A stretch of 64,000 bases of DNA from a virus: the IMG/VR virus record IMGVR_UViG_3300027792_000010; one strand, given 5' to 3'. The notes beneath the pieces were generated by a model. It was not told the DNA's origin, did no database searches, and saw only the letters and a list, made by a program, of their open reading frames with translations. Below are positions 25,268 to 31,995 of this stretch, one piece after another. How positions within the stretch are numbered: the first letter of the stretch is position 1; each line of letters starts with the position of its first letter. A program made the position numbers and the translations under genes.

Positions 25268-26608
25268 TCAGTTGATACTGTAGTTTGCCCTAATATACAA
25301 CAATGCTTGTTCTTTTGTTGTAACAGTACCTTCCAATTGTTCAGTGTCTACTGCTTCAAGAATCTCTTTGAATTTAGGTCCGGGTTTGAAACCCATAGCA
25401 ATAAGGTCATTACCATCTACCAATCTATCTGGAAGGATGACCTTACCTCCTGGTTCCTCTGCAAAAGAATCCATAGCTTCTTTAACAAACTGCAAATTAT
25501 CTAATCCTCCATGAGAAGACAAACAATCAGCCTTGTGAAGTTGCAAGTGCTCTTCAAATCTATCCATAGCTATAAATCTCTTAAGCGTGGACTTCCTCAT
25601 GTCCCGTATTACACAGAACTTCATATGGTTCTCAATTAGGGAACAAACCCTATCTATAAAATAATTTGAAAACTTCAACCTGGTTAATAGCTCTCTGGCT
25701 ATATGAGAGCCTTTAATATCATGTCCATTGAACACTAACCGACCTTTCCTATCATCCCAAGCTTTAGTAGTGGGCTTTCCCACATCATGCAACAAAGTAG
25801 CCCACAAAAGCTCTGGGGAGGCTTCTTTTGGGAGGTAATTCAAGGTGAGACAGGTGTGTTTACCGACGCACCCTTCTGGATGAAAGTCCACAGGCTGCTC
25901 ACACCCAAACATATCTTGAATTTCTGGCAGGATATGCTTTAGTATACCAAAATGTTCCAAATCCTTAAGAGCTTCTCCTCTGACTTTACTTTGTTCCAAT
26001 ATTTTTGTCAACTCATCTGCTATTCTCTCTACAGATATTTTCTTGATAAGGATACTATTATCCATTATAGCTTTCTCTGTATCGGAGTCCATAGAGAACC
26101 CCAAACGGTGTTTGAACCTTATGGCCCTCATTAATCTTAAGTGGTCTTCCAATATTCTCTCTTCAGGATCACCTATGAACCTAATTAATTTATCTTCTAT
26201 ATCTTTTCTACCGCCTACGTAATCATAGTACTCCTCAAGGGTAGGGTCATAAAAGATACCATTGATAGTGAGGTCTCTCCTGTTAGCATCCTCTTCCATA
26301 GTAGAAAACTCAACACTTGAAGGATGTCTACCATCCAAGTAAATACCTGCGTCTCTTCTAAAAGTAGCGACCTCAAATTGAATCCCATCAAGTATAACAA
26401 TTATTACGCCAAAAGCTTTCCCTACTTCTATATTATTAGGGAACAGTTCCTGAACTTGGTGAGGAAAAGCAGAGGTAGCTATATCATAATCATGCGGCAT
26501 AACACCCATAATTTGGTCACGATTGCAACCGCCAGCAAATACCGCTTGATATCCTGCGCTCTGTAGAATTTTAATAATACCTACAGCAAGTTCTTTTTGC
26601 TTATCCAT
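25268..26608 (-). CDS. cca: CCA-adding enzyme / class II tRNA nucleotidyltransferase with HD domain
   Basis: 'FAGGCNRD...DYDIAT', 'RRDLTING', 'EDHLRLMRAIRF', HD 'LLHDVGKP'. Confidence 0.9.
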   Translation of the reverse strand: MDKQKELAVGIIKILQSAGYQAVFAGGCNRDQIMGVMPHDYDIATSAFPHQVQELFPNNIEVGKAFGVIIVILDGIQFEVATFRRDAGIYLDGRHPSSVEFSTMEEDANRRDLTINGIFYDPTLEEYYDYVGGRKDIEDKLIRFIGDPEERILEDHLRLMRAIRFKHRLGFSMDSDTEKAIMDNSILIKKISVERIADELTKILEQSKVRGEALKDLEHFGILKHILPEIQDMFGCEQPVDFHPEGCVGKHTCLTLNYLPKEASPELLWATLLHDVGKPTTKAWDDRKGRLVFNGHDIKGSHIARELLTRLKFSNYFIDRVCSLIENHMKFCVIRDMRKSTLKRFIAMDRFEEHLQLHKADCLSSHGGLDNLQFVKEAMDSFAEEPGGKVILPDRLVDGNDLIAMGFKPGPKFKEILEAVDTEQLEGTVTTKEQALLYIRANYSIN

Positions 26609-27165
26609 TAGTTAAGTCCTATTGTACTTTTCAAATATTGTTTAGAGGGTATCCACTCTTTAATATCCATAGAGAATACCTCATCTACATTCCGTATGAT
26701 CTGATATGAATGCGTCGTTAATACTATCTGACAGTTTCGCTCTATAACCTCCTCAAATATTTTAAGCACTTTGACCTGATTAGTCAAAGACAACCCAGCT
26801 TCCGGTTCATCTATAATAAGAATAAGGTCTTTAAACTCTATTGCGGCCTTTAATAATGGCAATATAGCTTCACCATGAGACATAAAATGAGAAGTCACGG
26901 TAAAACGTGCGTTTTTAGAGGACGCCACACTCTGAAACCGAGGATTCATTTTCTCGGTATCCAGGAATCTGGTTTGGACTTTATCTGCCTCTATTCTCTT
27001 TAGCTTCTTATCTGGTTCAGAATTCAACAAGTGTAAAAGGGATGATTTACCTGAGCCATTCTCTCCTACAATTACATTCATCCCAGGATGGAATTTTACC
27101 TCGAATGGAGAAATACCCCGGTAAGGAACCTCTAGGGTAAATGACTTTAAAAAATGGGCGTACAT
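26608..27165 (-). CDS. ABC/SMC-type AAA ATPase
   Basis: 'GENGSGKS', 'MSHGE', 'IIDEPEAGLS', 'LTTHS'. Confidence 0.85.
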   Translation of the reverse strand: MYAHFLKSFTLEVPYRGISPFEVKFHPGMNVIVGENGSGKSSLLHLLNSEPDKKLKRIEADKVQTRFLDTEKMNPRFQSVASSKNARFTVTSHFMSHGEAILPLLKAAIEFKDLILIIDEPEAGLSLTNQVKVLKIFEEVIERNCQIVLTTHSYQIIRNVDEVFSMDIKEWIPSKQYLKSTIGLN

Positions 27166-27306: not shown

Positions 27307-27380
27307 TACGCTAGGCAAGATTCGAACTTGCGTTGTAGCTTTCGTAGAGCTATGCCTTTAATCCAATAGGCTACTAGCGC
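27307..27380 (-). tRNA. tRNA-Arg(ACG)
   Basis: Acceptor GCGCTAG/CTAGCGT, anticodon arm TAGCT-CTACGAA-AGCTA. Confidence 0.92.
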
Positions 27381-27386
27381 ATATTT

Positions 27387-27875
27387 TCAATACCCTAATA
27401 ATAGTAAAGCTTTATCTATGTCTAAATCAGAAAGCCCTATTAAGCTATCTGTTAGTACTAAATGATCTTTTAAATCTCCCAAATCATGATCCTCATCATC
27501 TATTATTATGTACTTACCCTTAAACTTGTTAGACCTTAACCAACTTTTTATTTCATCACTTCTATTATGGCTTATACGATTAGTATTTTTTAGTCTTACA
27601 CCGCAAGGGATCATTCCTATTATTTTATCTATGGGTACTGTTATAGCATCTACTGCAAAAGGATTGACACCATGTATAGCTCCATTTATCCTAAATATAT
27701 CTTTTAGCTTTTCCAATCCTGTTACATCTGACATCCAGCTACTTGTTATTACTAAGTTAGCATCTGTTATATCAATAAGTCTATTTAGTCTTTTTATAGT
27801 ATCTAAATCAAAATATAAATAGTCAGTATTTGCGGTACACAGCACCCCATCAATGTCTAAAAAGATAATATTCAT
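27387..27875 (-). CDS. HAD-family phosphatase (RNA-repair HAD_SAK_2-like)
   Basis: 'IIFLDIDGVL', 'LVITSSW', 'RSDEIKSWL', 'YIIIDD'; start moved to MNII because the longer ORF overlaps tRNA-Val. Confidence 0.82.
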   Translation of the reverse strand: MNIIFLDIDGVLCTANTDYLYFDLDTIKRLNRLIDITDANLVITSSWMSDVTGLEKLKDIFRINGAIHGVNPFAVDAITVPIDKIIGMIPCGVRLKNTNRISHNRSDEIKSWLRSNKFKGKYIIIDDEDHDLGDLKDHLVLTDSLIGLSDLDIDKALLLLGY

Positions 27876-27895
27876 GTTATCACTTTCTATTTTAA

Positions 27896-27968
27896 TAGGC
27901 TTATTCGGATTCGAACTGAAGACCTCCTGCACGTCGAGCAGGCGCTCTTCCAATTGAGCTATAAGCCC
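27896..27968 (-). tRNA. tRNA-Val(GAC), atypical (C33; one T-stem mismatch)
   Basis: Acceptor GGGCTTA/TAAGCCT, anticodon arm CCTGC-TCGACGT-GCAGG. Confidence 0.82.
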
Positions 27969-28244
27969 AACTAATCTATTTTTTCATGTCTAGATTGTTT
28001 TACTATTTTATAATGACTCCTCGAAGGGTCATAGCTACTTCTAGCCTCTCCGGGCTTACCGACCTCAGCAGCGTAAGACCGTTCAAGTCTATCATACCCA
28101 CGTTTAACAATCTCATCAATTTTCTGGCTACTCATAAATACCTCTACTAAGATTAAAGGTTACTGTTTACTCTTCATATTGTCCTATAAGGTCTTTTGGA
28201 AGGTTTAGTTATCTATAACATCAAAATTCAGTATACTTAAAGAA

Positions 28245-28820
28245 CTAAAGCCCACTATTATTACCCCATAAATAATAACTAAGCATATCGGCGCTATTTA
28301 AAATAACAGATAGTGTAGTCATACTAGTACCTTTGCTATACACTGAGGATAAATCAAAACTATACCCTCCATGATGGTGATCTATAGCCTCAATATGTTT
28401 ATCTGTAAGCTGTATCCCATTCCTAAAGCACTCTGCTACTGCCTTACTATTCTCCGCGTAGGGAGGAATATCTTTTCTATACTCGAATAGTTGATTACTC
28501 TTAGGCTCTTTAAGAAGTTCGTATCGCCATAGTTTATCCAGGTCATGCACAAAGGACACTAAAACTACATCGTCTATGTTAAAATCCTTTATTTCTTCAT
28601 AAGAGGAAGCTGTCTTGTATAAAGAGATGCCTAATTCCATTACTTGTGCTGTATGGTCACCCCACCCAGCTCTCCACCAGTGGTGATACTTTCTGGCTGA
28701 AGGATAGAAATCTATCTTATCCTTCAGGGTATAGTACGCACCTATCAAACTATCAAGGAGCGTACTACTCGTAATGTTATCTTCAAAGATCTTAGGTATG
28801 TCTGTTCCGCGTGGAATCAT
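28245..28820 (-). CDS. HD-domain phosphohydrolase
   Basis: 'YHH...DHTAQV', 'FVHDLDK', 'AIDHHHG', 'ADMLS'. Confidence 0.82.
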   Translation of the reverse strand: MIPRGTDIPKIFEDNITSSTLLDSLIGAYYTLKDKIDFYPSARKYHHWWRAGWGDHTAQVMELGISLYKTASSYEEIKDFNIDDVVLVSFVHDLDKLWRYELLKEPKSNQLFEYRKDIPPYAENSKAVAECFRNGIQLTDKHIEAIDHHHGGYSFDLSSVYSKGTSMTTLSVILNSADMLSYYLWGNNSGL

Positions 28821-28847
28821 TGTTATCCCTACCTTTCAAAAATGTAA

Positions 28848-28920
28848 TAGACGTTGAGGGATTCGAACCCCCGACATCCGCGATGTAAACACGGCACTCT
28901 ACCAACTGAGTTAAACGTCC
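28848..28920 (-). tRNA. tRNA-Val(TAC)
   Basis: Acceptor GGACGTT/AACGTCT, anticodon arm CCGTG-TTTACAT-CGCGG. Confidence 0.93.
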
Positions 28921-29120
28921 ATCAGTTTCTTATTTATTTCTGCGATTTCTTCCTCTTTTTTTCTTTTCTCCCTAACACACTCTCTTCTGGTATGAGTAAG
29001 CCATTCCGGGGCATCTGTAAAAGAATCATCCCAGGTATACCCCTCAATAGAATGATTCAGACTTAGTATTTCATCATATAGCTCACTCTTACGCTCTAAT
29101 AGCTGCTTTCTTTTTTTCAT
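28911..29120 (-). CDS. Small hypothetical protein
   Basis: ORF track; stop overlaps the tRNA-Val 5' end by 10 nt. Confidence 0.45.
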   Translation of the reverse strand: MKKRKQLLERKSELYDEILSLNHSIEGYTWDDSFTDAPEWLTHTRRECVREKRKKEEEIAEINKKLMDV

Positions 29121-29144
29121 TACAATTTTTCCTTAATTATATTG

Positions 29145-29216
29145 TGGGACCGGAGAGATTCGAACTCTCGGTACCCGTATTAAAAGTACGGGGCCTTACC
29201 ACTTGGCTACGATCCC
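29145..29216 (-). tRNA. tRNA-Lys(TTT)
   Basis: Acceptor GGGATCG/CGGTCCC, anticodon arm CCGTA-CTTTTAA-TACGG. Confidence 0.93.
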
Positions 29217-29331
29217 AGAATTTAATCCTGAGTTCGTATAATGGTAACTACAAACTCAGGCTATCGTTTATACCTTTTTAGACGTTTCATAAACAAAACT
29301 ACTTTCATATATAGTTAAATTTTTAAATTAA

Positions 29332-29404
29332 TACCCCTGGAAGGACTCGAACCTTCAACTCCTTGCTTAAGAGGCAAGTACTCTAACCATTGAGTTACAG
29401 AGGC
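29332..29404 (-). tRNA. tRNA-Lys(CTT)
   Basis: Acceptor GCCTCTG/CAGGGGT, anticodon arm CTTGC-CTCTTAA-GCAAG. Confidence 0.93.
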
Positions 29405-29455
29405 GATTTTAGACGTTTCTTATTTTTACTACTTTTCCACACGACCCCATAAAAC

Positions 29456-29486
29456 AAAAAAGCCCCAGAGAAAAATCTCCTGGGGC
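29456..29486 (-). terminator. Attenuator 2 intrinsic terminator
   Basis: GCCCCAGGAGA-TTTT-TCTCTGGGGC then TTTTTTGTTTT; 5' arm alternatively pairs with CCTGGGGTTCTTTTATCT (29517-29534) in the leader. Confidence 0.9.
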
Positions 29487-29514
29487 CTTTATCTAAAGCT
29501 ATTTAGCTTCATGT

Positions 29515-29595
29515 TCAGATAAAAGAACCCCAGGGGCTACCTTTATGGCGCTTTGCTACGACTTTTACCTTTACCACAAACAAACTCATAAACAT
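29515..29595 (-). CDS. Attenuator leader peptide 2, MFMSLFVVKVKVVAKRHKGSPWGSFI (Val/Lys/Arg sensor)
   Basis: SD AAGGAG; codons GTG GTA AAG GTA AAA GTC GTA GCA AAG CGC CAT AAA; upstream of tRNA-Lys x2, Val x2, Arg(ACG). Confidence 0.9.
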   Translation of the reverse strand: MFMSLFVVKVKVVAKRHKGSPWGSFI

Positions 29596-29614
29596 AATAT
29601 ACTCCTTGTATCAT

Positions 29615-29643
29615 AATATACCACTTTGCCGGGTAAAGATCAA
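29615..29643 (-). promoter_or_regulatory. Promoter of tRNA operon 2
   Basis: TTGATC-17 bp (ends AAAGTGG)-TATATT. Confidence 0.88.
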
Positions 29644-29652
29644 AATATTTTT

Positions 29653-30126
29653 TCACTTTTTATATCGCTCAGGTATATTCAAACTTTTAGTACTCTTGGT
29701 AAGCTTTACTTTTGCATCATCATAAGCACGAGCGGCATCGATCTCATCAGGAAATACTCCCAATTCATAATTTTTACCTTTGAAGTGTAAACGGGCTCTC
29801 CACTTAGTCCCATCCTGTTTGGTGACACCACGAAATTTAGATACTGAGGATGTGTGCTTTTTATGGCCTATACCCTGTTTTTTAAGGATAGGTTGTTTTG
29901 TTACAAGATTAAAAGGTTGGGGAGTATCCCCGCTGACGCTATTTAGTATTCCATCAGGAACTACCTCTTCTTTTATATCTGTTTCTAAAGCGTTTCTTAC
30001 TATACAGTCCCCATCATACCCCAACCCATCCAGATAGTCCTGTATACTTTTAATCTCAGTCACACATGCAACTAATCTGCTTTCCAAGGCCGTTTTTACT
30101 ACATCTTTCACGTTTTGCGGTATCAT
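29653..30126 (-). CDS. AP2-domain DNA-binding protein
   Basis: 'SKFRGVT...KWRARL...YELGVFPDEIDAARAYDDA..KL...LN'. Confidence 0.85.
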   Translation of the reverse strand: MIPQNVKDVVKTALESRLVACVTEIKSIQDYLDGLGYDGDCIVRNALETDIKEEVVPDGILNSVSGDTPQPFNLVTKQPILKKQGIGHKKHTSSVSKFRGVTKQDGTKWRARLHFKGKNYELGVFPDEIDAARAYDDAKVKLTKSTKSLNIPERYKK

Positions 30127-31344: not shown

Positions 31345-31995
31345 TTAGAACTTATTTTTTTTCATAGGTGCTGATAACTTATACTCATCTATAAATCTAT
31401 CATATACCATATTGTATATCTGACCATTCTTCGGGTTACGAAGAAGTTCAAACTCTTCTACAGTCCAATGAAACCACCTCATCAAAAATACTCTAATAGC
31501 AATCCCATGAGATACTATAATTACATTATTTGGAAAGTCTCTTTTCTCAAAGTCTCTATGTAAGGTTCCAAAGAATGAAGAGATACGATCAAATACGTCT
31601 GCTCCTGATTCTCCATTTTTTATTCTATAGAAAAAGGTACCATATGAGTCTCTCTCCTTATCTATTTCTCTTAATTCGCTAATATTTCCATAATTACCCC
31701 ATCCCTGTTCTCTTAATCTAGGGTCTTCGTGATATTTTGAAATAATAACTTTTTTATCTTCAAGAGTATCTCTTATAATTTTTGAAGTCTGCTGCGCTCT
31801 GAGCCAGGGAGATATATAAAAAGCAACAGAGATACCGTGAAGGTCAGAATAAAGTTTTTCTGCGGCAGCCTGAGCTTGCGTTATCCCTTTTTCAGTGAGG
31901 GGGACTTTCCAATCAGGTGTGGTCTCATAGATATTTTTATCTACATTGCCTACTGATTCACCATGACGTACTAAAAAAATGTTATAAGGCTTCAT
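31345..31995 (-). CDS. Histidine phosphatase (phosphoglycerate mutase family)
   Basis: 'FLVRHGESVGN', 'SPWLRAQQT', 'DPRLREQ', 'GESGADV', 'IVSHG'. Confidence 0.92.
   Translation of the reverse strand: MKPYNIFLVRHGESVGNVDKNIYETTPDWKVPLTEKGITQAQAAAEKLYSDLHGISVAFYISPWLRAQQTSKIIRDTLEDKKVIISKYHEDPRLREQGWGNYGNISELREIDKERDSYGTFFYRIKNGESGADVFDRISSFFGTLHRDFEKRDFPNNVIIVSHGIAIRVFLMRWFHWTVEEFELLRNPKNGQIYNMVYDRFIDEYKLSAPMKKNKF

Follow-up and report, generated by a model that had tools for sequence, protein, structure and literature searches.

How might a phage that carries its own transfer RNA (tRNA) genes decide when to transcribe them? The reasons for tRNA arrays in large phages are an open matter; the proposals include compensation for codon usage, making good the loss of degraded host tRNAs and evasion of defences that cleave tRNA. 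The question is raised by a 64,000-nucleotide (nt) stretch of the IMG/VR virus record IMGVR_UViG_3300027792_000010 (referred to here as the window), in which genes for tRNA-Lys, tRNA-Val and tRNA-Arg follow a short leader open reading frame (ORF) and an intrinsic terminator. The window looks like part of the genome, roughly 200 kb in size, of a large uncultured phage: a protein encoded in it is on record on a 202,460-bp contig, and a near-identical contig from JGI is 190,913 bp long. Nearly all genes of the window, including 16 tRNA genes detected with ARAGORN and Rfam, are carried by the minus strand. An original prediction had described the leader as an attenuator whose codons match the downstream tRNAs, a claim that is supported here by codon enrichment, permutation across five paralogous units, conservation in relatives of the leader ORF and both hairpins, ribosome-mask modelling with shuffled controls and the recurrence of the design in an independent phage family. 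From these lines of evidence, we assign a probability of about 0.78 to the reading that the element is a ribosome-mediated leader-peptide transcription attenuator, gating a phage tRNA operon together with the RNA-repair-like genes within it.

The promoter, leader, hairpins and tRNA genes had been placed on the minus strand, and every named element was found there; all window features described below lie on that strand. The Lys/Val/Arg unit (unit B) begins with a sigma-70-type promoter (29643-29615), identified by consensus scan and kept in the related metagenome contigs L007 and L022, which consists of TTGATC, a 17-nt spacer with TGG at its end (an extended -10 element) and TATATT. The long promoter consensus shared among the units has three copies in the window, and every copy lies upstream of a leader unit. 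A Shine–Dalgarno site read from the sequence, AAGGAG (29607-29602), is located 6 nt upstream of the ATG of the leader ORF (29595-29515), which comprises 26 codons and a stop codon; L007 and L022 have this ORF in the same frame, equally long and with its stop at the same position. The 5′ strand of the antiterminator (segment 2, 29534-29517) spans the last codons of the leader and runs into its stop codon, and the 3′ strand (segment 3, 29494-29479) overlaps the 5′ arm of an intrinsic terminator (29490-29446), composed of a G+C-rich hairpin (29490-29453) and a U tract. This overlap had also been proposed, and the pairing of 29534-29517 with 29494-29479 is indeed present in the minimum-free-energy fold; folded alone, the antiterminator has a stability of -25.5 kcal/mol, compared with -20.3 kcal/mol for the terminator. 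The U tract is followed after ~40 nt by the first tRNA gene, tRNA-Lys(CTT). Unit B has the complete anatomy of an attenuator, with its elements correctly ordered, and is thermodynamically plausible as one.

In the scheme that we infer, whose conjectural parts are translation of the leader, stalling of the ribosome, how far read-through extends and what triggers it in nature, transcription would start from the promoter at 29643-29615 and a ribosome would translate the 26-codon leader. When charged Lys, Val and Arg tRNAs are ample, the ribosome would reach the stop codon and cover segment 2 (29534-29517), upon which the terminator (29490-29446) would fold and the transcript would end ahead of the tRNA genes. 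When Lys, Val or Arg tRNA is scarce, the ribosome would stall in codons 6-17 and leave segment 2 free. Free segment 2 would pair with segment 3 and sequester the 5′ arm of the terminator, RNA polymerase would continue, and the genes for tRNAs Lys(CTT), Lys(TTT), Val(TAC), Val(GAC) and Arg(ACG), together with two genes for HD and HAD proteins, would be transcribed. Because the released tRNAs decode the control codons, the circuit would constitute a negative, self-limiting feedback on tRNA supply.

One line of evidence for this scheme is the match between the codons of the leader and the tRNAs that follow it. Cognate codons were defined as those decoded under ordinary wobble rules, the background being 16.7% of the codons in the window's long ORFs. 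Codons 7-18 of the unit B leader (29577-29542), which form its control run, read Val-Val-Lys-Val-Lys-Val-Val-Ala-Lys-Arg-His-Lys, and 10 of the 12 can be read by the five downstream tRNAs (P = 8e-7 for a single run). The codon tally given for the run is GTG, GTA (three times), GTC, AAG (three times), AAA (twice) and CGC, in line with the earlier statement that AAG/AAA, GTA/GTG, GTC and CGC codons, cognate to all of the downstream tRNAs, are present in the leader.

A stronger argument than this single run is the recurrence of the design: unit B is one of five such units in the genome, three of which lie within the window and two at L015:10541-10750 and L018:13912-14150. Unit A (6639-6425) has the shared promoter, a 28-codon leader rich in Asn, Gln and Pro, segment 2 at 6525-6512 and a terminator at 6469-6425, and it precedes tRNA genes for Asn, Pro and Gln. 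In unit C (36899-36644), the shared promoter is followed by a 22-codon Glu/Gly-rich leader with ATA and AGR codons, a segment 2 that lies over the stop codon (36721-36712) and a terminator (36683-36644); its block contains tRNA genes for Glu, CAT (anticodon), Gly and Gly, and then an insert-bearing tRNA gene read by hand as Arg(TCT). The leader of unit D (L015:10541-10750) is rich in Phe, Ile, Asp, Met and Ser(AGY), and the tRNA genes behind it are Phe, Asp, CAT, CAT, Ile and Ser(GCT). Unit E (L018:13912-14150) is headed by a leader of 37 codons, many of them for His, Ser(TCN), Thr, Leu, Cys, Ala, Trp and Tyr, and a block with tRNA genes for Cys, four for Leu, an insert-bearing Tyr, Trp and His. 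Cognate codons were then counted for every leader against every block, giving 120 pairings, with the block of unit E taken as its first eight tRNAs. The true pairing was the best of the 120, with 61 cognate codons compared with a mean of 21.6 and a next-best value of 49. The match reaches the level of isoacceptors, in that AGY codons occur in the leader ahead of tRNA-Ser(GCT) and TCN codons in the other Ser-bearing leader, and the five control runs combined cover all 20 amino acids.

Conservation of the unit was examined in metagenome contigs fetched via matches of the HD protein encoded in the operon. The identity of this protein to that of the window is 74% in L007, 60% in L022 and 45% in L010 and L011. 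Aligned across the window, L007 and L022, unit B shows a mean column identity of ~91%, compared with 60-74% for the HD protein, and among these three sequences conservation stops directly past the U tract. Five further contigs carry units identical to that of L007, and a scan of JGI metagenomes with the HD protein gave only three loci, in each of which the unit is identical to L007's. The first 22 bases of the control run (codons 7-13 plus the G of codon 14) do not vary among the relatives. Three replacements in or beside the run, Phe to Val, Ala to Val and His to Arg, all lead to Val or Arg, and up to 13 consecutive codons are therefore cognate in relatives. The leaders of L010 and L011, though written differently, share the richness in Lys, Arg and Val codons and are followed by a terminator and tRNA-Lys(TTT). 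The L010 leader includes a CGG codon, and a tRNA-Arg(CCG) gene is found downstream, with those for Val(TAC), Lys(CTT), Arg(ACG) and Val(GAC). L010 also has a counterpart of unit A, in which an Asn/Pro/Gln leader precedes tRNA-Asn.

Whether the RNA could switch in the way proposed was addressed with two fold models, in which the ribosome was represented by a mask that barred base pairing over the span between 15 nt upstream and 11 nt downstream of the A-site codon's first base. In the equilibrium model of the window, L007 and L022 copies, the probability of the terminator was 0.0-0.6 with the A site on codons 6-17 and 0.8-1.0 from codon 18 onwards; with the ribosome on the first four codons, it was 0.6-1.0. 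In the co-transcriptional (kinetic) model, the 3′ arm of the terminator has not yet been made, and the sequestration of its 5′ arm is followed instead. For unit B, this arm was sequestered at ~0.8 with the ribosome on the control codons and at 0.3-0.4 at the last codons, where masking of segment 2 by the ribosome frees it. Release of the 5′ arm at the last three to eight codons was obtained in this model for all ten units of this phage family. The difference in sequestration for unit B was 0.47, compared with 0.01 ± 0.15 for dinucleotide shuffles, and was reached by 1 of 150 of them; units A, D and E and the L010 unit exceeded all 60 shuffles.

The design was also found outside this family. 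IMG/VR was scanned for a word of the tRNA T arm, which gave 120 contigs, and these were searched for tRNA genes closely preceded by a terminator and, ahead of that, a short ORF. The search brought to light another group of giant phages, whose promoter differs and whose leaders are unrelated. A complete phage of 415,750 bp from IMG/VR has five codon-matched leader units (L151-L153, G001:280001-340000, minus strand), each preceded by its own conserved promoter-like motif. An Asn/Thr/Pro leader precedes tRNAs Asn, Pro and Thr; a Glu/Ala/Phe/Val leader, tRNAs Glu, Ala, Phe and Val; an Asp/Lys/Gly/His/Arg leader, tRNAs Asp, Lys, Gly and His; a Leu/Ser(AGY)/Gln/Cys/Trp leader, tRNAs Trp, Leu, Gln, Cys and Ser(GCT); and a Tyr/Met/Ser(TCN) leader, tRNAs Tyr, Met and Ser(TGA, AGA). 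The true pairing was again the best of 120, scoring 75 against a mean of 24.4. Across the contigs of this second family the leaders vary with the blocks: a Leu/Ser leader without Gln precedes a block without tRNA-Gln, and a Glu/Ala/Phe leader without Val in its core precedes a block in which no Val tRNA was called. Four of the five units switch in the co-transcriptional model, the exception being unit c2. With two unrelated families sharing it, the codon-matched attenuator design looks widespread among giant phages.

Several results weigh against the attenuator reading. Over the whole leader of unit B, 10 of 25 codons are cognate, which makes it the weakest of the five units by this count; the codons for Phe, Met, Ser and Ile in the flanks of the control run are those of a different block, and two control codons of the window copy, Ala and His, are non-cognate. 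Base-pair covariation is weak among the few distinct sequences, being confined to one change from G-U to G-C, and outer pairs of the antiterminator are weakened in L007. In the co-transcriptional model unit C is indistinguishable from shuffles, and the equilibrium model gives no switch for units A, C, D and E or for those of L010 and L011, for which only the kinetic model switches. Finally, the window copy favours the antiterminator when no ribosome is present: the equilibrium probability of the terminator is 0.33, compared with 0.85-0.96 in L007 and L022, and its 5′ arm is sequestered at 0.81 in the co-transcriptional model. Unit B is therefore without a clear 1:2 anti-antiterminator, and read-through would be expected also if translation fails.

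This behaviour of the ribosome-free RNA is what would be produced by a general sensor of translation status, in which any slowing or loss of translation keeps the antiterminator and induces the tRNA and repair genes, the codon content being secondary. We consider such a sensor unlikely, because it does not account for ten leaders, spread over two unrelated phage families, that are each composed of the codons of the block behind them, down to the Ser isoacceptors, nor for the replacements towards cognate residues seen in relatives. The codon match would likewise have no role if the hairpins answered to some protein or RNA factor instead of the ribosome, such as a phage antiterminator, a PyrR- or TRAP-like binder or a T-box-like contact with tRNA, and if the short ORF were incidental. 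Protein factors are possible on the sequence alone, and weak similarities to several Rfam leaders that contain a terminator (the PyrR site, the PyrG leader and the trpB motif) were seen, all far under their gathering scores. However, zero Rfam families reached threshold, T-box riboswitches gave no match at the gathering threshold in the window nor at E values up to 10 in 29380-29700, and the leader ORF has a strong ribosome-binding site with a conserved frame and stop position; control of this kind is judged quite improbable. The least probable account, and a very improbable one, is that the arrangement has no regulatory meaning, a leaky terminator ending a small-peptide gene, the tRNA genes being self-promoted and the codon match arising by chance or as a by-product of composition. 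Promoter-like hexamers are common in the A+T-rich window (57 observed versus 53.8 expected in the consensus scan), and weak promoters could lie within 29446-27300. Against this account, the gap between the U tract and tRNA-Lys(CTT) is too short for a promoter, unit B is conserved above the level of its flanks, the permutation result is the best of 120 in two independent genomes, and the switch of unit B is matched by 1 in 150 shuffles.

On the attenuator reading, the genes behind the terminator would be gated as one operon. tRNA-Lys(CTT) (29404-29332; Rfam, 70 bits) and tRNA-Lys(TTT) (29216-29144; Rfam, 66.5 bits) come first, followed by a 69-amino-acid ORF without an assigned function (29120-28911), of which a similar-looking ORF, judged by eye, is present in L022. 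Next are tRNA-Val(TAC) (28921-28847), an HD-type phosphohydrolase-like protein of 191 amino acids (28820-28245; phrog_5889), a 54-amino-acid ORF from the ORF list, also without an assigned function (28135-27971), tRNA-Val(GAC) (27969-27895), a HAD_SAK_2 protein (27875-27387) and tRNA-Arg(ACG) (27381-27306); all five tRNA genes were called by both ARAGORN and Rfam. An HD gene and a HAD gene had been predicted in this run. The latter matches Pfam HAD_SAK_2 (PF18143, E = 2e-22), the HAD phosphatase domain of RNA-repair proteins; the former has no Pfam match itself, and its assignment is upheld by matches to PF01966 (HD) in two relatives and by the retention of the invariant His and Asp columns. 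Neither a strong terminator nor a copy of the consensus promoter was found on the minus strand from 29446 to 27300. Together with the GTC and CGC codons of the leader, this absence suggests that a single transcript may extend as far as the Val(GAC) and Arg(ACG) genes at the distal end. In that case, the genes for the HD and HAD proteins would be co-induced with the tRNAs, perhaps along with a downstream ATPase and a CCA-adding enzyme.

Genes for an HD-domain CCA-adding enzyme, a small ATPase of the AAA/ABC type and a histidine phosphatase are found around the tRNA blocks (25268-27165 and 31345-31995, minus strand), and together with the HD and HAD_SAK_2 proteins they look like a set for tRNA maintenance and repair. 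Between the two tRNA-Lys genes (29260-29227, minus strand) lies an 8-bp hairpin with a loop of ~18 nt, kept in L007 and L022 and without a U tract, which may be a processing site.

Leader-peptide attenuation is itself a known mechanism, and its operation here is well supported in silico; what appears to be new is the class of genes that it would regulate, namely tRNA genes. The leader peptides thrL, ilvL, trpL, hisL, leuL and pheL are the attenuators of enterobacterial amino-acid operons, and thrL and ilvL are multivalent. With these the phage unit shares a promoter-proximal short ORF with a run of sensed codons, mutually exclusive antiterminator and terminator hairpins and a decision that would depend on ribosome position; as in thrL and ilvL, several amino acids would be sampled by one leader. 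However, the amino-acid operon attenuators regulate biosynthetic enzymes, whereas the phage unit would regulate tRNA genes, whose products decode the control codons themselves. The phage unit further differs in having no clear 1:2 pause or anti-antiterminator hairpin and in belonging to a phage, where it is one of five units that jointly sample all 20 amino acids. Rfam leader families scored under their gathering thresholds (His_leader, 20 bits versus 49; Phe_leader, 17 versus 55), and Thr_leader, Leu_leader and Trp_leader were absent.

A component of the translation apparatus is controlled by attenuation in the case of pheST, which encodes phenylalanyl-tRNA synthetase and has pheM as its leader. 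Cognate-codon decoding is the common principle; the target of pheM is a synthetase, a single amino acid is sensed and the gene belongs to the host. T-box riboswitches, whose specifier codon and T-box sequence make direct contact with uncharged tRNA without any need for translation, resemble the phage unit in that tRNA status is sensed and that a terminator is read through before genes that restore charged tRNA. Full-text literature searches gave no account of tRNA genes under the control of a leader peptide; the nearest published case found is Pseudomonas phage 201phi2-1, in which premature termination just upstream of a tRNA-Leu gene was seen by ONT-cappable-seq, experimental evidence that transcription of a phage tRNA gene can stop in its 5′ region (PMC11512511). 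The region upstream of this tRNA-Leu gene (L155:1584-1710, minus strand) was rejected as a codon-matched leader, since its sole ORF has 6 codons, none of them for Leu.

Defence nucleases, decay of host tRNAs and a mismatch of host supply with phage codon usage are candidate natural triggers of the attenuator. A response to PrrC- or PARIS-type attack is conceivable, and the same effect would be expected whenever charged tRNA for Lys, Val or Arg runs short for another reason. Lys tRNA is a known target of PrrC/PARIS-type nucleases, and phages counter such tRNA-cleaving defences, T4 by using Pnkp and Rnl1 against PrrC and T5 by using tRNA-Lys against AriB of PARIS. The present locus resembles these counter-measures in having phage tRNA-Lys genes beside phosphatase-type repair genes. 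To our knowledge, no sensing element upstream of the tRNA genes has been described for the T4 and T5 systems; such an element is the finding here, and its link to defence is conjectural. A more tentative possibility, which we hold to be doubtful, is that the five attenuators form a genome-wide sensor of the tRNA pool, each inducing only the block that the infected cell is lacking at the time and the repair-type enzymes embedded in it (HD, HAD_SAK_2 and perhaps the CCA-adding enzyme), with the Lys/Val/Arg unit serving as an inducible counter-measure against anticodon nucleases, PrrC or PARIS among them; such a sensor might also allow a single phage to fit its tRNA supply to hosts whose tRNA pools differ.

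If the attenuator reading is true, the phage would measure decoding speed codon by codon and supply tRNAs on demand. Textbook attenuation would be extended to a new class of regulated genes, whose product closes the feedback loop, and the rival proposals on phage tRNA arrays would become directly testable by a simple reporter. The units would also be compact natural sensors for the supply of specific tRNAs.

Further searches bear on the distribution of the unit. Searches of IMG/VR with the HD protein gave no relatives, and an exact scan of IMG/VR for the promoter pattern gave six loci, of which none was a relative. Among cultured phages, BLAST with unit B and one second-family unit gave matches to tRNA genes only, and tblastn with the HD protein gave matches at ~25% identity only. 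On a 131-kb viral contig, IMGVR_UViG_3300027792_000292 (L005:9338-9650, L006:73-200), the long promoter consensus lies directly upstream of tRNA genes without a leader ORF or terminator, and this contig might offer a natural reference case of tRNA promoters that are unregulated. In L010 and L011, a 4-bp self-complementary stem is kept near the end of the leader ORF (L010:3146-3160 and L011:4812-4826), with AAAA as its loop in the former and TTTT in the latter. The swap alters two peptide residues, and what selection preserves at this stem seems to be the RNA, not the peptide.

Other features were observed in the tRNA regions. Inserts of 27-31 nt are present in the anticodon loops of tRNA genes at 35733-35629 of the window (minus strand), L007:4288-4392, L022:2417-2520, L018:15365-15476 and L020:1694-1799, which were read by hand, in this order, as Arg(TCT), Val(TAC), Val(TAC), Tyr(GTA) and Lys(TTT). 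The inserts pair with the anticodon and lengthen the anticodon stem into a long hairpin, those of the Val and Tyr genes being alike. They are too short to be group I introns, and no bulge-helix-bulge motif was seen in them. The insert-bearing tRNA genes adjoin genes of the RNA-repair type. Transposase genes of the TnpB/IS605 OrfB type are also inserted within tRNA regions, both in this phage and in a relative, at 34582-33467 of the window (minus strand), L015:1167-2423 and L011:559-1698.

A tRNA gene with the anticodon CTA, which would read the stop codon TAG, adjoins tRNA-Gln(CTG) in the window (2609-2537 and 2452-2377, minus strand). Recoding of TAG was rejected as the reason for this tRNA, since read-through of TAG gives no general lengthening of ORFs. 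The ORFs at 15136-14390 and 14380-13355 share one frame, with a TAG between them. A second promoter-like motif lies directly after tRNA-Gln genes (~6062-6044 and 2356-2338, minus strand); the ORF starts that follow its two occurrences look alike, which suggests paralogous genes.

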